DNA of 64,000 nt, taken from the UHGV virus genome UHGV-0038496; one strand, written 5' to 3'. The DNA is from a virus. Made by a program: the position numbers and the translations under genes. The notes under the pieces were generated by a model, which saw nothing but the letters and a program-made list of their open reading frames with translations, had not been told where the DNA came from and did no database searches. Positions within the stretch are counted from its first letter, which is position 1, and every line of letters starts with the position of its first letter. Below, in pieces: positions 2,345-64,000 of the stretch.

Positions 2345-3385
2345 TTATAGTGTCTGAACGGTAATCCACTGTCCGTTAACAAGTTTCTGTAGCGGAGCTG
2401 CCCAGTAACCTGCACCACGGAGTTCTTTTTTGTTACCGTTAGCCCATCCTCTCATAACATAACCCGGACGTACCCTATTATTAGAAACCCCATCGATCAA
2501 CATACCGCCGCAGCGAATATCCTGAACGCCTGAAGCTGGGATACTGATAGTCAAGTTACCATTACCATCCGCGTTCACACCGTTGACTGAACGAACTACA
2601 TGGCGACCACCAACCACACAATACTGGCTACGGACTGTCATGTTATCGACGTTGGAACCACCGTTAGCATAGAAGCTACCTGTGGTCAACTGGCTCGATA
2701 CGCTGACGTTACCGAAGGAAGCTGTACCAGTAATGGTGACTGTGTTGGAACGCACGTTGTCCTGTGCTTCAATGTTACCAATGACTTTGAGAAGTGCACG
2801 GTTAACAGAGATAGCATTCAGATGCATCAGTGTAAACTCTGGGTTGATATCCGGTTGTGTAGGTTGGAATCTCCAACGGAAAGCATCAACTATGGAAGTA
2901 CCACCATCGTCGAATGAACCAACGTTATCCATCAAGCAGAAGTCTAACAAGGTTTTATCTGGACTGATTGTGGTTTCTATCCACGCCGCATCTGTTTCCG
3001 CTGCCGCAAAGTTAATGCGTTGCAATCCCAGAGGACCTGTCATTGTGTCACCAGTGATCTTGACGTAACGTGCGTCAGTCTCAGCTTTAGTAACAATGCC
3101 GAGGTTTTTACGGGCAATCTCTACATTCAAAAGATCGCTCAAGTTGTTGTCCTTAATAAGATAACGTCCTTCCATAGACGGGATCTGATCTTCGGAAATG
3201 TATTTGGCCCAGGTAGCCAGCATGTTGATGAGGTAGTTCAACTCTTCACATGATGGTTTCTGCCCTTTATCCCAACCTTTTCTCCAGAGATCGTCAATAG
3301 GACGCATCTTATTCTGTTTATGGGAGTTGGGGAGGATTTGATCCTCCGCAGCCCATATCTCTAAAGGAAAACTAGGTTTAGCCAT
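2345..3385 (-). CDS. Tail fibre tip protein, paralog B
   Basis: 346 aa; ITGDTMTGPL motif; shares N- and C-terminal blocks with 242..1306. Confidence 0.75.
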   Translation of the reverse strand: MAKPSFPLEIWAAEDQILPNSHKQNKMRPIDDLWRKGWDKGQKPSCEELNYLINMLATWAKYISEDQIPSMEGRYLIKDNNLSDLLNVEIARKNLGIVTKAETDARYVKITGDTMTGPLGLQRINFAAAETDAAWIETTISPDKTLLDFCLMDNVGSFDDGGTSIVDAFRWRFQPTQPDINPEFTLMHLNAISVNRALLKVIGNIEAQDNVRSNTVTITGTASFGNVSVSSQLTTGSFYANGGSNVDNMTVRSQYCVVGGRHVVRSVNGVNADGNGNLTISIPASGVQDIRCGGMLIDGVSNNRVRPGYVMRGWANGNKKELRGAGYWAAPLQKLVNGQWITVQTL

Positions 3386-3398
3386 TTATTTCTCCTGA

Positions 3399-5477
3399 TT
3401 ATGAAAGGTCTGGTGGTGTCACATCTTCTGTGTAGCTTTTAAGGGCTGTCTGCCCCATGTGAACAACAGTTGACTCTTTCGCACTGAATGTGATACTATC
3501 ATTCATAAGTTGAGGATAAGCCCATACGTACTGCTGTACTTCTGGGTAATGATACTCAGTGGTGCAGATATTACCACAGATCATTCTCCACAAAAATTCC
3601 TGATAGTTCTTCTCTGGGTCATAGCCATACACCGGAGCTAAATCTTTACCTGGTACAAACCCTGCGAGGTAGTGGATTTCGTTCCTGTTCCACCCCAAGG
3701 TTTTACGAGGATGTTCGATAGCTTCGAATGAACGTTCTATTTTCCCATTCATAACCCAATCATAGCATTCTGAACAGAAGAAGTCAAGTACTCCTGACTC
3801 TTTCTTGTACTCATCCGGCAGGTTAAGTTTTTCCATCACTGTACCAACAATGGTGGGATAGAAAACAAGGACTGTAACCTGAGCGCCAGGGAATGCTGCT
3901 TTAATTCCGGCAGAGATTGTTGCAATTCTCTGACCGAATTTTTTACGACAGAATGCGATGTACCTGTCATAAACACCACCAGTTAATGGTTTGTCAATGG
4001 TGCCCATGTCAAGTGCATACTCTCCTGTTTCCCTGTAGAACAGCTCTTTTGTGGTGTAGTCGTAAATACAAGGCTTGCGAGAGTCTGTATTGTACCACCA
4101 CCACGGTTCGCCAATCTGCATAATAACAGGAAGGTTTTTACTTTTCAAGATCTGAGCGAAGTTTTTAAAGACGCTCAGCAGGAATGTCATACCCCCTTCG
4201 ATACAAGGCGATAACAGGTAGCTGCAAGGTGTATACCCTGTCTTAGCGTAGCTATCGTCCCATTCGCGTTGAGTCCATTCCAGAGGACAGGCATCACTAT
4301 AAAGCTCCATGCTGACAGAGAACATTGCATCAGTGAATCCGTAACGAGTCAAATTGTAAGCAAAGTCATCATGCCATGCTTTGGCAGCTTTGTTCAGAGT
4401 ACCTGATCTGTCGATTTCCCATTTGTGAGTTGAGCTTCCCCATGAGTAATTATAATAGTGACTCATACCGCAATAGTGGTTGATTCTACCACGGTAGCCA
4501 AGTTTCTGGAGGTTGTAAAGAACACGCGCTGGGGAAACATTCCACATATCATCGTATGCAGTGCAAGCCCTTAAATCGTGACCTTCTACAGTCAGATCAT
4601 TAAGCTGCATGTATTTCCAGCCAGTGTCCGGCTCCAGCATATCAATGCGAAGTTCACAGTCAACATTAGTTGTGCGAACGTCTGTGCTGTTGGCAACATA
4701 ATCCTTAGGCATTAACGGGATCAGGATCTTGCGAACCTGACGAGGGTCAACTGCCACCAAGTAATTATTTTTGTCAACACCCAGACAATCCTCAAAATTG
4801 AGGTGAATATCTGCTGTGGTTTTATCAGCAGAAATGTTAGAAGCATAGTCCGACATACGGACGTAAACTATTGTACCATCAACAAGAGTGATAGTAATTG
4901 TGGCCTGACCTGGGGTTGTAAAGTCAAGAGCGTTGGTGAACTTGACCCTGAACCACAGCTTGGTATTACGCATCTCATAATGATCATCATATCCTACACC
5001 AAAATGGTCGTATGTGTCAACTGTTTCCCAGATTGCTCCAGACATACCCCCCATCGTACGTGAAGTCATTGTGACAATCACTGTGGAGTTGTCTGACTTG
5101 ATCGATGTACTCTCAGTCGGCTGGCAATTTGTTACCCAGTAGCGTGGGTGGAACATTCGTTCTTCTCGTGTTCCCCATTCAAGTCTGCTCAAATCTTCTC
5201 GTGAAATGATCGTGCATTTTGCTTGTTTGGTCCCAATTACCGTCCCCTGTGAGGGGGTATGGAACTGCATATAGAAGCTACGAGGCAGTCTGTTAGGTTT
5301 TTTATCCACAATATTAACAGGGATATCCACAAAAGCAGAATCCACTGGGATGATCGCCTTGCCTTCGACGTGAGTGTAATCACGCCCAGGCACAGCGGTA
5401 TCTGCCAGGGTGTTATACATAAATTCTGCCTGGAGTGTGGTGTAATCCCTGTAAGTTCTGAATACAGCGGTTGCCAT
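3399..5477 (-). CDS. Large tail/baseplate-associated structural protein
   Basis: 692 aa ORF in tail-fibre/baseplate block, Trp/Tyr-rich; function not recognisable. Confidence 0.5.
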   Translation of the reverse strand: MATAVFRTYRDYTTLQAEFMYNTLADTAVPGRDYTHVEGKAIIPVDSAFVDIPVNIVDKKPNRLPRSFYMQFHTPSQGTVIGTKQAKCTIISREDLSRLEWGTREERMFHPRYWVTNCQPTESTSIKSDNSTVIVTMTSRTMGGMSGAIWETVDTYDHFGVGYDDHYEMRNTKLWFRVKFTNALDFTTPGQATITITLVDGTIVYVRMSDYASNISADKTTADIHLNFEDCLGVDKNNYLVAVDPRQVRKILIPLMPKDYVANSTDVRTTNVDCELRIDMLEPDTGWKYMQLNDLTVEGHDLRACTAYDDMWNVSPARVLYNLQKLGYRGRINHYCGMSHYYNYSWGSSTHKWEIDRSGTLNKAAKAWHDDFAYNLTRYGFTDAMFSVSMELYSDACPLEWTQREWDDSYAKTGYTPCSYLLSPCIEGGMTFLLSVFKNFAQILKSKNLPVIMQIGEPWWWYNTDSRKPCIYDYTTKELFYRETGEYALDMGTIDKPLTGGVYDRYIAFCRKKFGQRIATISAGIKAAFPGAQVTVLVFYPTIVGTVMEKLNLPDEYKKESGVLDFFCSECYDWVMNGKIERSFEAIEHPRKTLGWNRNEIHYLAGFVPGKDLAPVYGYDPEKNYQEFLWRMICGNICTTEYHYPEVQQYVWAYPQLMNDSITFSAKESTVVHMGQTALKSYTEDVTPPDLS

Positions 5478-6175: not shown

Positions 6176-7666
6176 TTAAATGATTTGCTGGAATGTGATG
6201 TTGTTTTCATCAAGGTCAAACACCTCTGACATTGCAGCTGTAATGTCAGTAGCTGTATAAGCCTCATCTGAAGCACCAATCGGTTTCACATGGATGCTCA
6301 ATTTGTTAAAACGACCGATACTAACAGCAGCAGAAGCAGCACCTACAAGCTGAATGTTGTAAAGCGTATCTGCAATATCGAGGCCGTTAACAACTGCCAT
6401 CATGGCATCTATGATTGATTCTTTTTCGGTAGCAGAAAGTGCCACACCGGAATACGTTACCTTAACGTCCAGACGGTAAGTATTTGCTTTGGAGTAGTAA
6501 ATTCTTTCCACCTGACCATCTGAGGTGTTGATATCGTAGAACAGGTTACCGTAAGTCCTGTTCGTACAAGCAACCGTATCATACAGAGCCTGACAAATAT
6601 CAGCAGTGGAGCCACCAAACACAACCACCTGGAACTTATAAGGCGGGATGCCTAAGTTGTTAGTCTTATCTGTGTTGTTGGTGAATACCCTGACTTTACT
6701 TACCCCAGCCACATTGTGAATCGCACTCAGGATCGCAGGACGAGTAGCTTTAGCAGTTACCGTGTTGGTGCTTGTAGCTCTCAGGCGATACTCAGCGTCT
6801 GTCTCTACGTTTGTACCTTCGTTGAACATCTCTCTGTTGGTGAGGGAGATGAAACCACTAGGTGTCGGAGAGATCGTGGTAACAGTGTTTGCTTCACGGG
6901 ACATTTCACCTGCTTCAGAAGCGATGACTTCCAGCACGACTGTACGTTCACCAACAATCGGAGAAATACGGAAGTCAACTTTACTGTTCAGGCCTACACG
7001 TTCAAGAGTGGCATCATAGCCAATCCACAACGTACCTGTGGACATATCCACTTGAATCAAATCTTCGTTCAAAAGCGTGGAGTTGTCAACAATAAATTGC
7101 TTGATCTCACCATAGAAACTAACAAGGTCTGTGGAATCCAGTGCCTTATCAGTAAGAATCATGGTTTTGGTAAAAATAGTGCCATCAACCTGATTGGTCA
7201 TCTGGAATATGTATTTACCAATTCTGAGATCCGGTGCTGTTATCTTGTGAGCAATTATGTTGCCTGCTACCTGTGCATTACTTGCGAGTTTGAAGTTACC
7301 ACTGTCAATGCTATAAGTTTCTGTGTCGTAAATCATATTATAAGGGACAGTACTGTTGATTGTCAACTGGCACTGACCAGAAGCCTTAGTACGCCCTCTA
7401 CGATAAACACCTTGTCTCCCCAGTAATTCATCAAGGTAGATGCCTTCTGCCCCGTACAGCGTCTGGGAGGCGTATACAGCAGCCATCATGAGGATTAACT
7501 GGTATTCACGTTCGTTAAAGATTGTGGTGAGCTTGTCAGCAACCGAGTTGCTCTGGACGTTGAAATTATCCCCGAACGCCCTGATCAAGCTCTGCTTAGT
7601 TTCAACGATCAAATCGTTAAGTGTGGGCAATATAAACCCAGCATCTGTTAAACCATATTTAGCCAT
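6176..7666 (-). CDS. Baseplate structural protein (putative)
   Basis: Start set at MAKYGL (codon 22 of the called ORF) with GAGG Shine-Dalgarno; 496 aa. Confidence 0.5.
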   Translation of the reverse strand: MAKYGLTDAGFILPTLNDLIVETKQSLIRAFGDNFNVQSNSVADKLTTIFNEREYQLILMMAAVYASQTLYGAEGIYLDELLGRQGVYRRGRTKASGQCQLTINSTVPYNMIYDTETYSIDSGNFKLASNAQVAGNIIAHKITAPDLRIGKYIFQMTNQVDGTIFTKTMILTDKALDSTDLVSFYGEIKQFIVDNSTLLNEDLIQVDMSTGTLWIGYDATLERVGLNSKVDFRISPIVGERTVVLEVIASEAGEMSREANTVTTISPTPSGFISLTNREMFNEGTNVETDAEYRLRATSTNTVTAKATRPAILSAIHNVAGVSKVRVFTNNTDKTNNLGIPPYKFQVVVFGGSTADICQALYDTVACTNRTYGNLFYDINTSDGQVERIYYSKANTYRLDVKVTYSGVALSATEKESIIDAMMAVVNGLDIADTLYNIQLVGAASAAVSIGRFNKLSIHVKPIGASDEAYTATDITAAMSEVFDLDENNITFQQII

Positions 7667-37216: not shown

Positions 37217-38002
37217 TTAAATCATCCTCTTATACATAGAGGGTGAAACAATCTTCGGAATAACACATGGCATCGCAACTTCCTCTTTTTCAAGGTAGTT
37301 GATTGCAGAAGCAATGGAGTCGGCCCAGTCATCTTTACGGCTAAAGGTTGACCGTTCGCCGTTGAATTTCTCCAGCTCTGTCAAAAATGCTTCCAGTGTA
37401 TCAGGGTCGAAACTTGACCTGACAAGCCGAACCATACCCTGTTGGGCAAGGTTGGCAAACGGTGAGAAACGGGTGAGTTTTGATTTGTTAGACGGCATTG
37501 GGTCTTCTTCCACCCTGAAACCTCCAGCAAGGAGTTTGCGGGATGAAGTAAGAAACTCACTCTTACCTGCCTGACCGGGGTCCACAGAGAAGACAATCAC
37601 ACAATCTTCACCATCAAACTCTGCCTGTTTCCTGATAATAACATCGCGTTCACCAGCTTTCTTGCAGAACTTACCGCTCAAGCCTGTGGAATACCTGCCA
37701 TCATCTACGTTTTCAGGACAATAGTCACCAGAGATGTAGTAGTAACCATCGCTATCCTTGCTGACTTTGATACTGGCTGTATAGTCGGGGAATTTGTTGC
37801 CAGAGGTACGTTCTGTACCAGCTTTATCCCACGCTCTTACAGAAACTGCTCCTAGGGGGACATGATCCGCATCTTTCAAGAATGTGCGACTGAAATAGTT
37901 TGCGCCTTCCGGTTTAGCGAACCAGTTACCATAGAGAAGTTGTGCTTTTTCCAGTTCTGGCAGACCTTCTAGGAATGCAAGATATTCTGGGTTATCACGC
38001 AA
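37217..38002 (-). CDS. Terminase large subunit, 3' exon (nuclease domain)
   Basis: 261 aa beginning LRDNPEYL; upstream frame closed by TGA a few codons earlier, so this is not a complete gene; intron core immediately upstream. Confidence 0.75.
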   Translation of the reverse strand: MRDNPEYLAFLEGLPELEKAQLLYGNWFAKPEGANYFSRTFLKDADHVPLGAVSVRAWDKAGTERTSGNKFPDYTASIKVSKDSDGYYYISGDYCPENVDDGRYSTGLSGKFCKKAGERDVIIRKQAEFDGEDCVIVFSVDPGQAGKSEFLTSSRKLLAGGFRVEEDPMPSNKSKLTRFSPFANLAQQGMVRLVRSSFDPDTLEAFLTELEKFNGERSTFSRKDDWADSIASAINYLEKEEVAMPCVIPKIVSPSMYKRMI

Positions 38003-39009
38003 GCAGATAGGGTTATCGTGTCCTGGTGTTCAGGGCCGGACGCAACTCCGACCCCCGTTGGTTCCATCCACCGCATCCATGCTCGGCTGCATGTTACCAT
38101 GCAGAGCAGACTATATCACGATCCTGTTTCTCACAGGACCCTTCGCTTTTCGAGCACCATCAGCTTGTGCCCTACTCCCTTTCGGGATAGTCGTTGAACT
38201 ACAATTACCAATCATAATTGTTTGAAATGTAAGTATAAGTTTTCCTTTCCTTGATACTTTTCACTGTACGGTGAGAAACCCCCCACAATCTTGCCACCGC
38301 ACCAACGGATAAGCCTTTTTGTAAATCTTCGCAGATACCAATCACCTTGTGCTCACTTATTCTGTTAGCTGAAGGTATTTCCCTAAAGTGAAACTCCGCA
38401 GAGATATCTGGGTATACTGATCCATTCTTTATACCACTTACAAGGGTTTGATTGACACCGAACATCTGACAGATATCTTTTACCCTTGCACCTTGCTCTA
38501 ATAGCCTGCATATTTCAAGGGCAGTGGCATCATCCAAATACCTGTATTTATTTACATAATCTTTTTTAAGTCCAGTTTCATGGGCGTGGTGTGTGTTTTC
38601 CTCTGGGGTTGTCCACTCAAGGTTCCATGCGGCGTTATTCAACTTATTACCGTCCAAGTGATTTACTTGGGTTTTCACGCTAGGATTATCATTATCAACA
38701 AAAACCTCAGCAACAACTCTGTGAACAAGCACTTGGAACTTTTTGCCGTCCTCACACAGGGAAACCACAGCATAGCCTGTCTTTTTATGCGTAACAGGTT
38801 GAAGGAATTTATTAGAATACAAACTATAAATTCTGCCATCATATGTCACGCAATAGTGTGGGTAACCTAAAAATCCTAAATTCTTCATTTCAAACACTCC
38901 CTACTACAGTTTCGGAAGAATAATTATAGCTGCTGATTATCTGAAAGTCAATCAGATTTTCCAGCAATTAACGAAGTTATTCGACGTGCATTACTGCACG
39001 AAGCCACTA
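38003..39009 (-). mobile_element. Group I intron C in terminase gene, carrying HNH ORF (approximate boundaries)
   Basis: 3' part (38003-38204) contains AACGACTATCC...GATATAGTCTGCTCTGCATGGTAACATGCAGCCGAGCATGGATGCGGTGGATGGAACCAACGGGGGT, about 50/51 nt identical to nrdD intron 2. Confidence 0.6.
38205..38897 (-). CDS. Intron-encoded HNH homing endonuclease (NUMOD-like N-terminus)
   Basis: 230 aa; QVLVHRVVAEVFV, VNHLDGNKLNNAAWNLEW HNH motif; C-terminal helix-turn-helix-like region. Confidence 0.8.
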   Translation of the reverse strand: MFEMKNLGFLGYPHYCVTYDGRIYSLYSNKFLQPVTHKKTGYAVVSLCEDGKKFQVLVHRVVAEVFVDNDNPSVKTQVNHLDGNKLNNAAWNLEWTTPEENTHHAHETGLKKDYVNKYRYLDDATALEICRLLEQGARVKDICQMFGVNQTLVSGIKNGSVYPDISAEFHFREIPSANRISEHKVIGICEDLQKGLSVGAVARLWGVSHRTVKSIKERKTYTYISNNYDW

Positions 39010-39327
39010 CAGATTAATGGTTGCACCAATAAAGGCGATAGAGAGGGGTTTTGGAACTATCTCAACACCTTTACCGTTAACATACGTGTACTTCTCGATC
39101 AACTCTTCTGGCGTATCGCCGAAGATAAATTCCCCATCCCTACGGATGAAATAACGCTTAACGCCACACTTACTTTCATCGGGGTAGCCTTCGTCATCAA
39201 GCCACCAACGAACAAGTTTGGCTAAATAATGTTCAGAATCGGGGTTACAGCTGATCACCATTCGCGAAGAGTATTTTGATTTCGACCTCATACGGGAAAT
39301 CAGGTAGTCGATTTGCTCCCATTCGAA
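39010..39327 (-). CDS. Terminase large subunit, internal exon (approximate boundaries)
   Basis: Frame FEWEQIDYLISRMRSKSKYSSRMVISCNPDSEHY...IVPKPLSIAFIGATI; ISCNP resembles ATPase motif III; ends just before a DNP-type motif that continues in the 3' exon. Confidence 0.55.
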
Positions 39328-39684
39328 CTGAGTCGTTTGTGTTCAGGCAAGGTCGCTAATCTTGCCCCGCCACCATGTGGCAGCTGCATGTCTCCATGCA
39401 GACCAGACTATATCTTATAAGCGGTAACAACCGCCTATCCTCCCGTTTCGGCAGTCTTAAAAGACTGTGGGTTTCCCCAGCCGCTTGGCCCTAACGCCCG
39501 TAAGCGATAGTCGTTGAGCACACATCCTATCAGGATGCTTCGCTGCGGATTATCTAAATCAACACACTATTACCATACCTTCGGTCTTTCTCCAAAGCCA
39601 ATATTATGTTACCATAATAGATTGGTGGTGTCAATAGTAAAGATTTCCCCGCAATTAGGGAGGTTTTACGAGAGCTACCAACTA
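39328..39684 (-). mobile_element. Group I intron B in terminase gene, ORF-less (approximate boundaries)
   Basis: Contains CAACGACTATCG...GATATAGTCTGGTCTGCATGGAGACATGCAGCTGCC...CCTGAACAC core elements (minus-strand sense). Confidence 0.5.
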
Positions 39685-39735
39685 ACCCTCGTCAAAGCAT
39701 ATTAAAGTATATTCCACTTTTGTCCCGCCGGATCG
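39685..39735 (-). CDS. Terminase large subunit mini-exon encoding Walker B motif (approximate boundaries)
   Basis: Minus-strand frame ...TKVEYTLICFDEG then TAG; LICFDE fits the hhhhDE Walker B consensus at the expected distance (about 100 aa) after the Walker A in the 5' exon. Confidence 0.5.
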
Positions 39736-39975
39736 CTACTCCGACGCGGTGTGCTAAGACACCCGCCACATATTACCATGTGGAACAGACTATCTCTTCC
39801 ATCCTTGGCGTGCCGTTTGGATCACCAATCGCTTGTGATTCTACTCCCCTACACTCATCGGGGATAGTCGTTACACTCGGTTTCAATTAATCCTTTAACC
39901 GTAGCTCGGTATTGTCCTTTTGTCAAGGAGTTTCACCGAATTAGGCACGAAGGGCAGGTTTGTTTACCCTTGATG
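39736..39975 (-). mobile_element. Group I intron A in terminase gene, ORF-less (approximate boundaries)
   Basis: Contains GTAACGACTATCCCC...GAGATAGTCTGTTCCACATGGTAATATGTGGCGGGTGTCTTAGCACACC core, paralogous to the tape measure intron. Confidence 0.45.
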
Positions 39976-41079
39976 ATTCAGCTTATCTTGGACGTATTCC
40001 ATGTGGCAGTACTTGATTACCGCACCATCCCTTTTCTTATTCCACTTACCTGTCTTTGCATCGTAATATGGAAAAGTAAACTTATGATCTTTCTCCCTAA
40101 ATTTTGGCCTCATATATTCAGGAAGATCCAGATACACACTTAGTGCTTTAGGCCACAGACCGCCTTCACCTTCCAGTTGTGGGGTTGTCCTACGGAACAT
40201 CACCACAGAGGTGTTTGGGTCATCTATCATCTTTAGTGGGAGAAGCTGCAAAAGAAAGGATTTACCACTGTTGCCTGTCACTGCAATGCAGTTTTCCAGT
40301 CTGGTGATAAAATAGCCTGTTGTGGTAGCAAAACAATATTTGTAACCATCTTCCGGCTCAAACTCTTCGAACGTTGCATCGTTATTAAGAGCAATCGTAC
40401 CTGCACGTTCGTTGGAGAACACAACTTTGTAACCCTTTTCGAAGAAGATCTGTGCATTGAATCCCAGAGATGATCCGAGGTATTGCAAGAAATCAGCCTG
40501 TTCTTTCGTTGGAACAACGTAGACATGCGAGTCATTACCGTTCAGGTAAATCTCATACCAGATCTGCAACAACTGGCGACGATCACAGTTATACCATTCA
40601 TCTGTGAATTTGTAATATCTTGCCTTTTCTTTCAGCTCTTCGTCAGAAATATCAAGGCCAGTACCACCCATGTTCACAAACGTGGTTTGCATACGCATTG
40701 CCAACTCATCGTTAGCATGTTGTTCGGCCACTTCACTGAAACAAAGTGTACCGTAATCTGTTCCGTCTTCTGGTACATACAGGACTGTGTGCTCGTCAGA
40801 CAATTCCTGACAAATACCATCCTGCACAACCCTGGTCAATTTATCGCATTCCAGCTTAACAAACTCTTCAGGCTGGATAAACATAGCCTTACCAGTTTCT
40901 TTATCAAACTGGAGGATATCTTGACCATCCCAGTCTGAGATTCTGATCCAACCGTTAGGTGTCATCACCTCATGTCGCATTGACAAACAACCCGCTGCCC
41001 CACCAATGATCAGGAAGTCGGCATCATTTTCCAGAATCATTTGTTGTTTACGGGAGCATGGGCCATACATTTTAGCCAT
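39964..41079 (-). CDS. Terminase large subunit, 5' exon (ATPase N-terminus with intein in P-loop)
   Basis: ORF as called (371 aa); extein sequence IIGGAAG / SGKSFLL reconstitutes Walker A GAAGSGKS once residues 31-270 are removed; the true 5' splice site lies somewhere before the in-frame stop at 39964. Confidence 0.75.
   Translation of the reverse strand: MAKMYGPCSRKQQMILENDADFLIIGGAAGCLSMRHEVMTPNGWIRISDWDGQDILQFDKETGKAMFIQPEEFVKLECDKLTRVVQDGICQELSDEHTVLYVPEDGTDYGTLCFSEVAEQHANDELAMRMQTTFVNMGGTGLDISDEELKEKARYYKFTDEWYNCDRRQLLQIWYEIYLNGNDSHVYVVPTKEQADFLQYLGSSLGFNAQIFFEKGYKVVFSNERAGTIALNNDATFEEFEPEDGYKYCFATTTGYFITRLENCIAVTGNSGKSFLLQLLPLKMIDDPNTSVVMFRRTTPQLEGEGGLWPKALSVYLDLPEYMRPKFREKDHKFTFPYYDAKTGKWNKKRDGAVIKYCHMEYVQDKLNHQG
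40270..40989 (-). mobile_element. Intein (mini-intein, about 240 aa) in terminase Walker A motif
   Basis: Begins CLSMRHEVMTPNGWIRISDW (intein block A pattern) and ends ...ENCIAVTGN followed by +1 Ser; flanking exteins form an intact P-loop. Confidence 0.7.
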
Positions 41080-42206: not shown

Positions 42207-42282
42207 TGGCACCCCGTACAGGACTCGAACCTGTAACCTATGGCTTAGAAGGCCACTGTTCTTCCATTTGAACTAACGGGGC
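42207..42282 (-). tRNA. tRNA-Arg (anticodon UCU), CCA encoded
   Basis: 76-nt cloverleaf on minus strand: acceptor GCCCCGT/ACGGGGT, D stem GTTC/GAAC, anticodon stem GTGGC/GCCAT with loop CTTCTAA, T arm ACAGG-TTCGAGT-CCTGT, discriminator G, 3' CCA. Confidence 0.85.
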
Positions 42283-60926: not shown

Positions 60927-61430
60927 GTGTTAAACGTAATCAAGAGAGATCTGACAACAGAACCTTTTGATGCTCGTAAAATAGTGGTAGCTGCACAAAA
61001 AGCCCTGGAGGCATCCGGGGCTGATGTGACAAGAGCATTTCATGCTGCACATTTTATTGCTGACGAGATTGTTTCTGAATTGGAGAGCTATGCTCAACAT
61101 GAAGAGGAGATAACAGTACCTGAAATCCACACAATGGTGGAAAACGCTTTGATGCGTTATGGTTATCTGGATGCTGCCCGTGCTTATATTGAGTACCGTA
61201 AAACCCGTGATAACAACCGTGAAGCTGCTGGTAAACTGCTGGCAGATGTTAATGGTTTCCTTGACCAATCCTGTGATGAATTCACTAAGGAGAATGCTAA
61301 CAAACCCACCAAGCATGTGCACACTCATCGTGATTTACTGGCCGGGATTCTAAGTAAGCACTTAGCTGTTACACAGATCCTACCGGAACATATTTCGAAG
61401 GCACATACTGATGGTTTTATACATGTCCAT
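60927..61430 (+). CDS. nrdD: Anaerobic ribonucleoside-triphosphate reductase NrdD, exon 1
   Basis: GTG start with GAGGAG Shine-Dalgarno; ATP-cone (VIKRDLTTEPFDARKI) then ENANKPTKHVHTHRDLLAGILSKH...GFIHVH, colinear with T4 NrdD up to the intron. Confidence 0.8.
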
Positions 61431-62392
61431 GAACAACATCGTGGCCTTACTGAGTGATCAGTATTGAATAACTCTGTTAACGCTAATTGCAAAGCGGTGT
61501 GCAGCGAAAAGCTGTGCTAACGGTTCAGAGGCAGGTGACTGCATTATGAGTAAGGGAGCCTAAACCCTTTGGACTAGGGGCAAGGTAATACCGTGCTAAG
61601 AATAGTGGCATCCTCTTAACTAGGAGGATGGTATGAATTTAGAATATGTTGATTGTGGGGATTACACAATCTATGAAGACGGTTATGTGGTTGACCATAT
61701 AGATGGCTATTGTGGTTGGGGGTACAGAAACGGTGGATACAGAGAAGCCTATGTTTACATAGGTGGAGAAAAGAGAAGAATGAAAGTTCACAGGTTAGTA
61801 GCTATGGCTTTTATTCCAAACCCTCTGAATTTGCCAGTTGTTAATCATCTGGATGGGAATAAGATGAACAACCACAGAGACAATCTTGAGTGGTGCACAC
61901 AAGGTCGTAACAATATACATGCAATTGAGACAGGATTAAGAAACGTCGCTGAATCGAACAGTAAGAGGTGGGATGACTCTGCATTCAGAGAAAGAACGGC
62001 TTCCAGAATAAGTGCGACACAAAAAGAACGCGGGACAACCGCTGGTAGGAATAATCCTCGTTTCAAGTATGAGATTGTTAAAGACGGAGATGTGTACACG
62101 GCTCCAGAGTTCTTCAATAAATTCAAAGATGTTTATGGTTTAAAACATTTGGAAAATCTGATAGGTAATTGTTGTGCATACCTCAAGCACAACTTGAAAA
62201 GAAAATTCTGGCTTAAAGTTGGAGCAGAGCCACGCTACGCCAAGAAAGAGTAAAACCTTCGGATGCCACTATTTATGTGTATCGACTATCCCGTAAGGGA
62301 GTAGGTGGGAGATGCTCCCCATCCAAAAGCAGAGGATCTCTAACTAGAGATCGTGATATAGTCATTGCCTACAGAAATGTAGGAGAATCAAG
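61431..62392 (+). mobile_element. Group I intron 1 in nrdD with HNH ORF
   Basis: 962 nt; 5' exon ends in U, intron ends in G; 3' part contains GATCGTGATATAGTC, identical to the start of the terminase intron C core; splicing restores HVH-DLDYIISPLTNCCLV. Confidence 0.65.
61633..62253 (+). CDS. Intron-encoded HNH homing endonuclease
   Basis: 206 aa; AGGAGG Shine-Dalgarno; HRLVAMAFIPNP and VNHLDGNKMNNHRDNLEW. Confidence 0.8.
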   Translation: MNLEYVDCGDYTIYEDGYVVDHIDGYCGWGYRNGGYREAYVYIGGEKRRMKVHRLVAMAFIPNPLNLPVVNHLDGNKMNNHRDNLEWCTQGRNNIHAIETGLRNVAESNSKRWDDSAFRERTASRISATQKERGTTAGRNNPRFKYEIVKDGDVYTAPEFFNKFKDVYGLKHLENLIGNCCAYLKHNLKRKFWLKVGAEPRYAKKE

Positions 62393-63055
62393 GATTTAGA
62401 TTACATAATTAGTCCATTAACGAACTGTTGTCTTGTAAATTATCCAGACATGCTGGAGCATGGATTTACAATAGGTAACGCAACCATAGGAACACCAAAT
62501 TCTATTAATGTAGCTGCAACAGTTCTTTCACAAATTTCAGCTGCTGTTTCTGGTGGGCAGTATGGTGGGCAGACGTACAGTCACATAGACCGCTACCTTG
62601 TCCCCTATGTAGAAAAAACACATAATAAAAACTTATCTTTCTGTAAAAAACACGGTTTGCCGGAAAGCGTTGCTGATGAAATGACAGAGAAAGATGTATA
62701 TGATAGTATGCAATGTTTTCTCTATCAAATCAACACCTTAACCAGCACCAACGGGCAAACTCCGTTTTTGACTATCAGTTTAGGTCTTGATACTTCTAAA
62801 TTTGGGAGGATGATCACTAAAAACTATCTTATGGTTCATAAAGGTGGCATTGGTGAAGACCATATAACCCCAGTATTCCCTAAAGTCTTGTTCTTCCTTG
62901 AAGAAGGGGTGAACATGAACCCAGGTGACCCAAATTACGATTTGAAACGCCTGGCTTTGGAATGCTCAGCAGAGCGAATTTACCCAGACTTCGTTTCTGT
63001 GCCTTTGAACAGAAAAGTGACAGGATCTACTGCTGGCGATGTTACAAGCATGGGT
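62393..63055 (+). CDS. nrdD: NrdD, exon 2
   Basis: 221 codons in frame; TNCCLV...GFTIGNATIGTPNSINVAA...QYGGQTYSH...NGQTPFLTISLG...DPNYDLKRLALECSAERIYPD colinear with T4 NrdD. Confidence 0.8.
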
Positions 63056-63833
63056 AAACTACTATTGCTCATGTAAAACCTATCTAAACGGGGGAACTCT
63101 CTACGGAGAAAATCCCGTGCTAAACGTAACAGAACTCCCGGAGAAAAGGAGTCCTGAAATGAGAAAACAAATTCGTGATTTTGAAGGGTATGAAATTGAC
63201 GAGATGGGAAATGTTTATTGCACCCGCTACGAAAAGGAAAGAATCATCCATCCGTGGGAAGAAATAAACACAGGCTACCTTCTTGTCAGGATACGCAAGA
63301 ACAAGAAAACTGTTTGCCTGAGGGTTCACAGACTTGTTGCTGAAGCGTTTTTACCGAATCCAGACAATTTGCCCTATGTTAAGCATAAGGGTGACAACAA
63401 GAAAGATAACAGCGTATACAATCTTGAGTGGGGTGCTTGCCCAGATAATACCCAGGAAGGTTACGACAACAACTGTTATACTTTTTACACAAGGTGTCAC
63501 GGTGTGAAAGCTACCAACAAACTGACTGGTGAAGTTTTCCACTTTAAGAGTCTGAGATGCTGTGCTGATACTTTAGGGGTGGATAGAAAAAGAATATCTG
63601 CTATCCTGAAGCGTGGAGCACCTAATAACTATGATTACGAGTTCTGTTACGAAATGCCGAACGACTAACCGTGATGAATGTAGCGGTGTAGGGTGCAAGC
63701 CTATGGCACTCCAAAAGATAGGCACACGAAAGTGTGAAGATATAGTCTGATCTGCATGGTGACATGCAGCCGAGCATGGATGCGGTGGATGGAACCAACG
63801 GGGGTAGTGTTGCGAGCTACTCTGAACACAATG
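63056..63833 (+). mobile_element. Group I intron 2 in nrdD with HNH ORF
   Basis: 778 nt; splicing joins ...VTSMG to CRSFLSKYN (T4 NrdD has SPMGCRSFLS at this point); 3' core about 50/51 nt identical to terminase intron C. Confidence 0.65.
63159..63668 (+). CDS. Intron-encoded HNH homing endonuclease
   Basis: 169 aa; AAGGAG Shine-Dalgarno; HRLVAEAFLPNP and VKHKGDNKKDNSVYNLEW. Confidence 0.8.
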   Translation: MRKQIRDFEGYEIDEMGNVYCTRYEKERIIHPWEEINTGYLLVRIRKNKKTVCLRVHRLVAEAFLPNPDNLPYVKHKGDNKKDNSVYNLEWGACPDNTQEGYDNNCYTFYTRCHGVKATNKLTGEVFHFKSLRCCADTLGVDRKRISAILKRGAPNNYDYEFCYEMPND

Positions 63834-64000
63834 TGTAGAAGTTTCTTGAGTAAATACAACGATCCTGTAACAGGTGAAGAGAAATATCTCGGTCGTTTCA
63901 ACTTAGGTGTGGTAAGCCTGAACCTACCTATGATTGCAGCTCGTTCCAAAGCTGAACAGGTAGATTTCTTCAAACTGCTTGACGAGTATCTTGAACTGGC
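63834..64000 (+). CDS. nrdD: NrdD, exon 3 (continues beyond window)
   Basis: CRSFLSKYNDPVTGEEKYLGRFNLGVVSLNLPMIAARS matches T4 NrdD GRNNLGVVTLNLPRIAL region. Confidence 0.75.

Follow-up and report, generated by a model that had tools for sequence, protein, structure and literature searches.

An nrdD gene of a Vequintavirinae-like phage interrupted by two predicted group I introns with HNH endonuclease genes

The interrupted nrdD gene

The window, a 64,000-nucleotide stretch of viral DNA (UHGV-0038496), ends within a gene whose coding sequence is interrupted twice, each time by a segment with an open reading frame (ORF) of its own. The following features were assigned, intron 1 by direct reading, covariation and comparison of alleles, and intron 2 by Rfam, homologues and covariation.

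60927..61430, plus strand: nrdD exon 1 (504 nt), with a GTG start and an AGGAG 9 nt upstream, ending in GTC CAT (...IHVH)
61431..62392, plus strand: intron 1, putative group I (IA2-like, with P7.1/P7.2), 962 nt
61609..61630, plus strand: hairpin of the intron 1 ORF, CAUCCUCUU / AGGAGGAUG, which buries its Shine-Dalgarno sequence
61633..62253, plus strand: intron 1 ORF, a predicted 206-aa HNH homing endonuclease with an I-HmuI-like N-terminal and HNH part (H72, N84, N93), in the P6 loop
62393..63055, plus strand: nrdD exon 2 (663 nt, 221 codons), from GAT TTA GAT TAC... to ...ATG GGT, encoding DLDY...TNCCLV...VTSMG
63056..63833, plus strand: intron 2, group I by sequence (IA2, T4 td/nrdD-like, no P2), 778 nt
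63159..63668, plus strand: intron 2 ORF, a predicted 169-aa I-HmuI-like HNH homing endonuclease (H76, N88, N98) with a NUMOD-like C-terminal domain, in the P6 loop
63834..64000, plus strand: nrdD exon 3, cut by the window end, starting TGT AGA AGT, its first codon being the Cys equivalent to C290 of T4

The three exons covered the Pfam NRDD profile colinearly (positions 1-48, 48-263 and 264-310, exon 2 scoring 179 bits), with an ATP-cone domain ahead of it in exon 1 (73 bits). All exon frames are open and retain the invariant NrdD residues, among them both cysteine motifs (TNCC and MGCRS; C79 and C290 in T4), and the first residues of exon 1, MLNVIKRD, also open the NrdD of relatives. Judged by these class III features, the gene is nrdD, which encodes the anaerobic (class III) ribonucleotide reductase (RNR). 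When translated jointly, the exons matched T4 NrdD (1H78, E 1e-97) and 9D3X (E 7e-98) and ran ungapped through both junctions (marked by an arrow): gfIHVH↓DLDYi against giIHVH↓DIDYs, and vtSMG↓CRSFLS against vsPMG↓CRSFLS. An earlier, sequence-only reading had followed the frame colinearly with T4 NrdD across both interruptions, and the alignments bear this out with the junctions where it had placed them. Its further observations that both 5' exons end in U, that both introns end in G and that exon lengths are multiples of three (exons 1 and 2) agree with our reading of the sequence; both introns are in phase 0, and the predicted ligated junctions are ...GTCCAT↓GATTTAGAT... and ...ATGGGT↓TGTAGAAGT...

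In T4 NrdD numbering, intron 1 lies between H66 and D67 (IHVH↓DLDY), 12 codons ahead of the NCC cysteines, and intron 2 between G289 and C290, immediately 5' of the codon for the thiyl-radical cysteine. The 3' end of nrdD is outside the window and the C-terminal glycyl-radical domain would fall past position 64000; in relatives this domain is present and nrdG comes next, and close relatives carry one more nrdD intron further downstream, placed at ...LYGTP↓..SESLCY in L028, L029 and L163. The division into three exons proposed earlier thus holds for both junctions, but three is a minimum because the window end truncates the gene.

Ribozyme cores of the two introns

The helices assigned to intron 2 were as follows.

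63048-55 with 63067-74: P1, exon GCAUGGGU paired with GCUCAUGU, 8 bp, U63055.G63067
63079-85/63716-22: P3
63088-92/63114-18: P4
63098-101/63106-09: P5
63125-32/63644-51: P6a, spanning the ORF
63663-67/63743-47: P7
63668-71/63684-87: P7.1
63691-96/63706-11: P7.2
63723-27/63732-36: P8
63752-58/63763-69: P9
63804-07/63817-20: P9.2

P1 folded at -10.6 kcal/mol (z -3.2), the J8/7-P7 motif GAAGAUAUAGUC occupies 63736-63747, and the intron ends in ...AATG, its terminal G at 63833. The Rfam model Intron_gpI (RF00028) matched only the 3' half of the window copy (34 bits, E 3e-6), since P6 accommodates a 510-nt ORF; the gathering score of the model is 50 bits, which neither window intron reaches. ORF-less copies of intron 2 at the same site, which align base for base with the window core, scored 70.6 (phage phi92), 82.9 (L036), 80.4 (L028), 75.0 (L039) and 71.8 bits (L032). 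Covariation was assessed for each intron in eight closely related sequences, with structures drawn from the window sequence, a procedure that favours the observed structure over slid controls. For intron 2 (65 pairs in 13 helices), 96.1% of cells were paired compared with 31-45% in the slid controls, and 18 pairs were doubly changed compared with 0-5; these lie in P3, P5, P6a, P7, P7.1 (four pairs), P7.2 (two pairs), P8 and P9.2. By its sequence and predicted fold, intron 2 is a group I intron, and one already known from cultured relatives.

Intron 1 was less accessible to the standard model. Rfam Intron_gpI gave no match to it in the window or to a minimal ORF-less relative (L163), and an ORF-less relative (L036) scored 18.3 bits (E 0.02), below the gathering score, whereas a remote relative with the intron 1 layout (L153) reached 58.5 bits, above it. 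Two additional hairpins following P3, together with a long P5 region, seem to mislead the model. Because Rfam gave weak or no matches, the structure was solved by hand and tested by covariation, with the following result.

61427-61430 with 61439-61444: P1, exon CCAU plus GA paired with UCGUGG, U61430.G61441 at the splice site
61448-53/61458-63: P2
61472-78/62328-34: P3
61481-83/61494-96 and 61499-505/61511-17: two extra hairpins between P3 and J3/4
61520-24/61590-94: P4
61531-34/61539-42: P5
61601-13/62261-73: P6, pairing across the ORF
62284-88/62359-63: P7
62290-92/62297-99: P7.1
62304-09/62318-23: P7.2
62335-41/62346-52: P8
62368-73/62378-83: P9

P1 is short (6 bp, fold z only -1.45), the J8/7-P7 motif GUGAUAUAGUC is at 62353-62363, and the intron ends in ...CAAG with its terminal G at 62392. 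Across 13 helices, the P3/P7 pseudoknot among them, the 76 pairs were formed in 97.3% of cells (30-52% when slid), and doubly changed pairs numbered 24, as against 2-7 in slid controls and 10.7 ± 2.0 in shuffled ones (0 of 500 shuffles reached the observed count). P6 was fully rebuilt in a second sequence type, P7.2 held three doubly changed pairs, and the P3 that we adopted, CUCUGUU/AGCAGAG, reads UUCUGUG/CGCAGAA in L155. An alternative P3 preferred by Rfam, with its strand just upstream of UAA-P4, forms 3-4 bp only and fails in Vibrio phage phi 3 and in L153/L155. These results support the assignment of intron 1 to group I, a membership that rests on manual helix assignment, and the proposal that both interruptions are group I introns is sustained by covariation-backed cores in each case. 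No relevant name for the two hairpins ('P3.1/P3.2') emerged from a literature search. A scan for the P7...J8/7 pattern (TCGACTATCC...GATATAGTCA) matched more than 120 viral contigs, too generic a result to define an intron 1 family, and nhmmer over these loci retrieved only a handful of remote relatives.

The two introns have in common a U.G pair in P1 at the 5' splice site, a G as the last intron base, and a T4-like, covariation-backed core from P3 to P9 out of whose P6 the HNH gene is looped; in the phi 3 relative the P1 guide sequence differs, matching its own exon. In the Michel-Westhof classification, subgroup IA2 is defined by two extra hairpins, P7.1 and P7.2, inserted between P7 and P3-3'. 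Both hairpins are present, with compensatory changes, in both window introns, which places the two predicted structures in IA2 (T4-like).

RNR genes attract inteins and other elements too (PMC3653736; PMC12880540), and the insertions might on that ground be taken for inteins or group II introns. However, the exon frame meets stop codons 8 and 6 codons into the insertions, each ORF has a separate frame and ribosome-binding site, Pfam revealed neither an intein nor a LAGLIDADG or reverse-transcriptase domain, and group I hallmarks are present throughout (the J8/7-P7 GAUAUAGUC motif, the P3/P7 pseudoknot, the U.G pair at the 5' splice site and the terminal G), so that this explanation is scarcely credible.

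A second alternative is that endonuclease gene insertions split nrdD and that its fragments, translated separately, reassemble into a multi-subunit NrdD without splicing. The nrdA gene of Aeromonas phage Aeh1, split by mobE, is a precedent for separately translated fragments (PMC3653736), nrdD pieces are routinely annotated as separate CDSs in database records, and intron 2 ends with an in-frame AUG directly 5' of exon 3 that annotators have taken as a start. Yet the ORF list gives exon 2 no in-frame start codon ahead of 62450, so that the first 19 codons of the exon, including the NCC cysteines, would be translatable only after splicing; separate translation would lose the conserved DLDY...NCC segment. 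Neither exon 2 nor the AUG before exon 3 has an upstream Shine-Dalgarno sequence, the splits fall inside active-site motifs, and covariation supports a complete group I core in each intervening RNA. Both insertions, moreover, also occur without an ORF at the same sites, which would be senseless for a free-standing endonuclease gene. We regard separate translation as very improbable, and both introns are instead predicted to splice.

Endonuclease genes and signs of mobility

As the sequence-only reading had it, each intron carries its own HNH ORF preceded by a Shine-Dalgarno sequence (AGGAGG at 61622-61627 for intron 1, AAGGAG for intron 2). The intron 1 ORF matched Pfam HNH_3 at 34.1 bits (cut-off 24.8) and I-HmuI (PDB 1U3E) at E 7.6e-9. 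The intron 2 ORF matched 1U3E over its full length (residues 3-166, 164 residues, E 1.5e-7), its matches to HNH_3 (19.9 bits) and to an I-HmuI_NUMOD-like profile being under cut-off. Both products keep the H..N..N residues and are, by sequence, I-HmuI-type HNH proteins, for which endonuclease activity and a cleavage site may be presumed. In IMG/VR the intron 1 endonuclease had only distant HNH relatives, at 44% identity or less over ~95 residues and in unrelated contexts, with short HNH-motif segments of up to 67% identity.

The last ~25 nt of the intron 2 ORF also serve as P6a-3', J6/7 and P7-5', with the stop codon overlapping P7/P7.1. In intron 1, the hairpin that buries the Shine-Dalgarno sequence folded at -14.8 kcal/mol (z -4.45; 0 of 200 shuffles as good), and by our reading of the sequence it shares part of its 5' arm with the 5' strand of P6, which means that only one of the two pairings can form at a time. 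A regulatory role for the hairpin is suggested; by competing with P6 it may couple translation of the endonuclease to folding of the ribozyme.

All 15 fetched copies of intron 1 (the window and 14 related-contig loci) start after CAT and end CAAG↓GAT, with flanking codons that vary at synonymous sites, and one locus (L029) is an intron-less allele, CATGTTCAT↓GATCTGGAT. With its ORF, intron 1 is ~94-96% identical in DNA in L030/L032/L160; between the window and L160/L032 it is 96% identical, compared with 61-67% for their exons. Intron 2 is 86.5% identical to the intron of phage vB_EcoM_SYGMH1, compared with ~65% for the coding sequence, and exon identity to SYGMH1 climbs to 75-80% beside the intron. 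Introns so much more conserved than the exons around them are, at the level of sequence comparison, a signature of homing. Among relatives the introns are distributed patchily, and copies exist with an ORF, with a decayed one (L028, in-frame stop) and without any; intron 1 recurs at the same site in metagenomic relatives with its HNH gene present, absent or decayed. It had no counterpart in cultured-phage records, where blastn matched nothing beyond fragments of HNH motifs and, in the Vibrio phage phi 3 group, the 3' core.

Decay of the endonuclease in L028, the atypical structure of intron 1 that Rfam misses, and the apparent dispensability of the gene, since some phages of the wider group are without nrdD/nrdG (PMC7344957), could all suggest that one or both introns have decayed and no longer splice, which would make nrdD a pseudogene in the window phage. 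In the window copy, however, every helix of the two cores is preserved, and where relatives differ the changes compensate each other; the exon frames are open with the invariant NrdD residues kept, and both endonuclease ORFs are intact with their catalytic residues. We therefore judge decay unlikely.

Taken together, these observations make it highly probable that nrdD of this Vequintavirinae-like phage carries two mobile group I introns, each of which splices and encodes an HNH homing endonuclease. Each intron RNA would fold into a T4-type (IA2) ribozyme that excises itself with guanosine and joins the exons into a single continuous NrdD frame, while the gene in its P6 loop would yield an I-HmuI-type endonuclease. 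Homing would be expected in mixed infection: the endonuclease would cut or nick the intron-less nrdD of related phages near the insertion site, and repair of the cut allele would copy the intron in. The two introns occupy the most conserved codons of the gene, those under catalytic constraint. Homing endonucleases usually choose targets of this kind, which cannot escape by mutation.

Significance and relation to known systems

Introns of this sort are well-known selfish mobile elements in the nucleotide-metabolism genes of phages, and the present case leaves the current understanding of group I introns and homing unchanged. The two-intron nrdD exemplifies selfish introns placed on unchangeable host codons, one directly before the radical cysteine and one 12 codons before the second active-site cysteine, and its relatives show with unusual clarity how introns keep moving between diverged phages, with a 96% identical intron in genes that are 61-67% identical. 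For annotation, nrdD would here be one joined CDS rather than three NrdD fragments and two 'hypothetical/HNH' genes, and many deposited Vequintavirus records (nrdD_1/nrdD_2) would need the same correction. The standard group I covariance model also appears to have a blind spot for one widespread phage intron layout.

A broader reading is conceivable, although we consider it less likely than not: that intron 1 represents an undescribed nrdD site (IHVH↓DLDY) and/or a T4-like subclass (two conserved hairpins between P3 and J3/4-P4 and an enlarged P5 region, largely missed by Rfam), and that nrdD of this uncultured Vequintavirinae-like clade is an exceptional intron hot-spot, with no fewer than six different sites occupied in close relatives, all of them at conserved motifs, and with the endonuclease life cycle represented in all its stages. 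If true, this would provide a natural system for how homing endonucleases choose and switch targets.

The closest known counterpart of intron 2 is the nrdD intron of Vequintavirus/Justusliebigvirus phages (such as vB_EcoM_SYGMH1, FV3-like phages and phi92), which occupies the same site (ATG GGT↓TGT, between G289 and C290). In SYGMH1 its P6 loop likewise holds a 169-aa HNH gene, annotated as a homing endonuclease and 94% identical in amino acids, whereas phi92 has an ORF-less form, with nrdD entered in its record as a joined CDS labelled 'spliced variant'. RT-PCR has demonstrated splicing of HNH introns in CB7, a related phage (PMC7344957). The window nrdD is only ~65% identical in DNA to the Vequintavirus-type gene, and Vequintavirus-type phages have no intron between H66 and D67, the 60 best cultured-phage matches being uninterrupted there.

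The T4 nrdD (sunY) intron, described in two reports as mobile via an intron-encoded endonuclease (PMC2988022, PMC1865063), has in common with the window introns the host gene and the T4-type IA2 family with P7.1/P7.2, and its 3' core is 78.5% identical to that of intron 2 over 119 nt. It splits codon Y180 (phase 1), unlike the window introns at H66↓D67 and G289↓C290, and carries I-TevII, a GIY-YIG enzyme whose ORF (locus 2652-3428) starts downstream of the core segment matching intron 2 (2501-2613), while the window enzymes are HNH proteins in P6. The different T4 site given in the sequence-only reading is thus correct, and the suggestion there of independent insertions stands for the sites; the intron 2 ribozyme, on the other hand, belongs with the T4 nrdD and td introns in one T4-like family.

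For the intron 1 ribozyme, the closest cultured-phage relative is the nrdD intron of Vibrio phages phi 3, JSF10 and JSF12 (Demerecviridae), 77.7% identical over the 3' ~90 nt. The two have the same layout of P3, two hairpins, UAA and P4, as well as P7.1/P7.2 and an ORF in P6, but the Vibrio phage intron lies at a third site (MYP↓D, between P267 and D268 in T4 numbering), with guide CCCU/GGGG and a different 165-aa ORF. Both window ORFs match I-HmuI, the HNH nicking endonuclease from the DNA polymerase intron of Bacillus phage SPO1, and keep its H75/N87/N96; the intron 2 ORF does so over its whole length, including the C-terminal DNA-binding part. Identity is low and the target sites are other ones, and the intron 1 ORF has an unrelated C-terminal half of ~100 aa.

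Phage RNR genes with several introns have been described before, and nrdD is the one most often split (PMC3653736). Twort nrdE has two group I introns, Brochothrix A9 nrdE has three, and nrdD of a Jug phage is in four fragments, with splicing in these cases shown by RT-PCR or RNA-seq (PMC3653736; PMC12880540). These systems belong to other lineages and differ in their genes or sites and in their intron sequences, but like the window nrdD they have several group I introns at conserved functional residues, some with HNH genes.

The nrdD reading frame across two insertions

The anaerobic (class III) ribonucleotide reductase gene, nrdD, is interrupted by intron 1 (61431-62392) and intron 2 (63056-63833), the first base of the former and the last base of the latter lying exactly where the sequence-only reading had placed them. 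The exon-1 product consists of an ATP-cone followed by positions 1-48 of the Pfam NRDD profile, and its frame reaches a stop 8 codons past ...IHVH. The gene start and the later profile matches are as follows.

60927, plus strand: nrdD start, GTG, with AGGAG upstream
62396-63076, plus strand: NRDD profile positions 48-263 (Pfam), resuming where the exon-1 match ended
63834-63998, plus strand: NRDD profile positions 264-310 (Pfam), resuming where the exon-2 match ended

When 60927-61430, 62393-63055 and 63834-64000 were joined, a single open frame was obtained that aligned with T4 NrdD (PDB 1H78, E = 1e-97) and with a second solved NrdD (9D3X, E = 7e-98), with zero gaps at both junctions in each case, so that the colinearity claimed from the sequence alone was borne out. 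The same reading was accurate in that the exon lengths are multiples of three (504 nt for exon 1, 663 nt for exon 2), both 5' exons end in T (U in the RNA) and both insertions in G. Its count of three exons holds inside the window but is a minimum, as nrdD runs past the window end at 64000. This architecture is observed directly.

In T4 NrdD numbering the junctions fall between H66 and D67 and between G289 and C290. C290, on the tip of the finger loop, is the cysteine that bears the thiyl radical, and the NCC motif, 12 codons downstream of the first junction, includes C79, the second active-site cysteine. It is unlikely that the NrdD fragments are translated separately: the first in-frame start codon available to exon 2 comes no earlier than 62450, so that separate translation would lose the NCC motif, and a free-standing endonuclease gene cannot account for the ORF-less versions in which both insertions exist. 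Stops, frames and RNA features rule out inteins and group II introns.

Intron RNAs and their endonuclease genes

The 3' half of intron 2 matched the Rfam group I model with a score of 34 bits (E = 3e-6); the gathering score, 50 bits, was not reached because a 510-nt ORF interrupts the RNA. ORF-less copies at the same site did exceed it, with 70.6 bits for phage phi92 and 71.8-82.9 bits for four metagenomic relatives, and the window copy minus its ORF aligns with them base for base. The structure is T4 td-like, with P1, P3, P4, P5, P6/P6a, P7, P7.1, P7.2, P8, P9 and P9.2 and no P2. In a small alignment of these related copies, with the structure derived from the window sequence, it was 96.1% paired versus 31-45% with partners slid, with both-side changes in 18 pairs, among them four in P3, four in P7.1 and a P7 switch from GACUA/UAGUC to GACCA/UGGUC. 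P1 is an 8-bp helix of exon GCAUGGGU with intron GCUCAUGU, the splice-site U lying opposite G. The ORF is located in the P6a loop, and its final codons (...CYEMPND and stop) double as P6a-3', J6/7 and the P7 5' strand.

The Rfam group I model returned no match to intron 1 in the window or to a minimal 311-nt copy in another contig (L163); a natural ORF-less copy (L036) scored 18.3 bits (E = 0.02). Direct reading gave P1 (CCAU^GA/UCGUGG, ^ marking the junction, with U.G at the splice site), a GNRA loop in each of P2 and P5, P3 (CUCUGUU/AGCAGAG) with J3/4 UAA, P4 (ACGGU/ACCGU), after which comes GCUAAG, as td-type introns have it, a 13-bp P6 spanning the ORF (AAUAGUGGCAUCC/GGAUGCCACUAUU), P7 (GACUA/UAGUC) with the J8/7 motif GUGAUA before its 3' strand, P7.1, P7.2, P8, P9 and a terminal G. 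Across eight related sequences (one from the window, six from metagenomes and the nrdD intron of Vibrio phage phi 3), again folded on a structure derived from the window, 97.3% was paired versus 30-52% slid, and both-side changes occurred in 24 pairs versus 2-7 slid and 10.7 ± 2.0 shuffled (0 of 500 shuffles reached 24). P6 was wholly rebuilt in a second sequence type.

Intron 1 departs from the textbook layout in having two hairpins between P3 and J3/4 and a longer P5 region. The layout recurs in phi 3 (L003) and in the unrelated viral contigs L070, L101, L153 and L155, with compensatory changes in both extra hairpins and in P3, and L153 scored 58.5 bits, above the Rfam threshold. On the directly read features, the covariation and this same-layout relative, we therefore file intron 1 as a T4-like group I intron, though it is unrecognised by the curated model. 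The extra pair lies at 61481-61517, between the P3 5' strand and J3/4-P4; the Rfam model aligns this region incorrectly, and most introns of this kind fall below its threshold. A literature search found no name for a hairpin pair at this place.

With every helix and every conserved NrdD residue preserved, nrdD is unlikely to be a pseudogene.

As had been claimed from the sequence, each intron carries an HNH ORF preceded by a Shine-Dalgarno. Both resemble I-HmuI (1U3E), the HNH homing endonuclease encoded in the polymerase intron of SPO1. The intron-1 ORF aligns with it across its N-terminal and HNH portion (E = 7.6e-9), the intron-2 ORF along its whole length (E = 1.5e-7). The His and the two Asn are retained in each, and the two ORFs are 46% identical to each other across the 59-residue HNH core. 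Each Shine-Dalgarno lies in a hairpin:

61609-61630: Shine-Dalgarno hairpin, intron-1 ORF; strong (-14.8 kcal/mol, z -4.45)
63133-63152: Shine-Dalgarno hairpin, intron-2 ORF

The 5' arm of the intron-1 hairpin is also the P6 5' strand (contested sequence CAUCC), and since one strand serves both, hairpin and P6 are mutually exclusive. The hairpin may time endonuclease translation against RNA folding. Translational control has been described for T4 intron endonucleases, and by analogy these hairpins may act likewise.

Very probably, both intron RNAs would self-splice and so re-create a single NrdD reading frame, and in co-infected cells the HNH enzymes would promote homing into alleles that lack the introns; the catalysis, the cleavage sites and the regulation are what we infer here.

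Distribution among relatives and mobility

The window genome is distant from cultured Vequintavirinae (~15% of 21 kb matched, 72-77% identity). Intron 2 with its endonuclease occupies the same site in many Vequintavirus records, which annotate the NrdD pieces as CDSs of their own, alongside one for a homing endonuclease; in the phi92 record, nrdD is one joined CDS labelled 'spliced variant'. The last three bases of intron 2 (63831-63833) are AUG, in frame with exon 3. Deposited records (e.g., SYGMH1_136) begin an independent 'NrdD' CDS at this codon, apparently an annotation artefact propagating through Vequintavirus genomes. Relative to phage SYGMH1, intron 2 is 86.5% and its endonuclease 94% identical, and the nrdD coding sequence ~65%, with higher values (75-80%) close to the intron, over the final ~250 nt upstream of it and the initial ~90 nt downstream. 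The pattern fits transfer with co-conversion of flanks. The best DNA matches to the nrdD region are INPHARED MG0656xx, 'Campylobacter phage A13b, A138, A142...'; these several ~140-kb, unannotated records resemble Vequintavirus coliphage genomes, and the Campylobacter label may reflect a wrong host assignment or mixed lysates.

Among cultured phages no counterpart of intron 1 emerged: the best 60 of 2,892 tblastn matches were uninterrupted at the intron 1 site, and blastn with intron 1 gave fragments only. When the exon-1 product was used as a protein query, it recovered N-terminal NrdD fragments from metagenomes whose NrdD sequence breaks off at the same point and continues into the same intron-encoded peptide, EQHRGLTE; the metagenomic intron position is identical (beginning after CAT, ending CAAG^GAT). 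Intron 1 carries a 206-aa HNH gene in L030-L035 and L160-L162 and no ORF in L036-L039 (329-330 nt) and L163 (311 nt), and L029 is an uninterrupted allele. The intron 1 copies of L160/L032 share 96% identity with that of the window, the flanking exons only 61-67%; between the window and L028, exon 1 is 91% identical and intron 1, decayed, 70%. The population pattern so observed is what recurrent homing, with later decay and loss of the endonuclease, would be expected to leave. The L028 HNH gene (6715-7329) is broken ~46 codons in by an in-frame TAG, appears as two ORF calls and, judged by its sequence, is an endonuclease caught in decay; the L028 ribozyme keeps all helices.

Close metagenomic relatives (L028, L029, L030, L032, L036-L039, L160, L163; proteins P0001-P0018) have nrdD interrupted at no fewer than six different places, each a conserved motif: IHVH^D, DLDY^ (P0013), QYG^G, TNG^Q, MG^C and LYGTP^..SESLCY. 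Combinations are patchy, a single gene holding between one and three introns. The ORFs vary (HNH of 206, 169, 177 or 264 aa, a 314-aa NUMOD4 protein, or none). Two further sites are those of T4 (codon 180) and phi 3 (MYP^D).

Elsewhere in the window, the terminase large-subunit gene (37217-41079, minus strand) also looks split, and there is a tRNA gene:

37217-38002, minus strand: Terminase_6C ORF
38205-38897, minus strand: 230-aa HNH + HTH ORF, between the 371-aa N-terminal ORF and the Terminase_6C ORF
[quoted passage not shown]
39964-41079, minus strand: 371-aa N-terminal terminase ORF
42207-42282, minus strand: tRNA-Arg (anticodon TCT), single gene

A TerL in the same three segments, with a homing endonuclease, has been reported for phage rV5 (PMC3606486).

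Comparison with known phage introns

Phage ribonucleotide reductase genes are a classic refuge of group I introns. T4 nrdD has its single intron at a different site, as the sequence-only reading stated: it splits codon Y180 (...AYE^Y..EVNTLFSSNG; AF158101) and carries the GIY-YIG enzyme I-TevII, whereas the window introns carry HNH ORFs. Of these genes, nrdD proved to be split most frequently across 128 surveyed phage genomes, and nrdE has two introns in Twort and three in Brochothrix A9 (PMC3653736). HNH introns of the Vequintavirinae phage CB7 splice, by RT-PCR (PMC7344957), and in Jug phages nrdD lies in up to four pieces, with splicing evidence by RNA-seq (PMC12880540). Intron 2 is already known from cultured relatives; the intron 1 site in nrdD is new within the collections and literature searched, and its layout is atypical.
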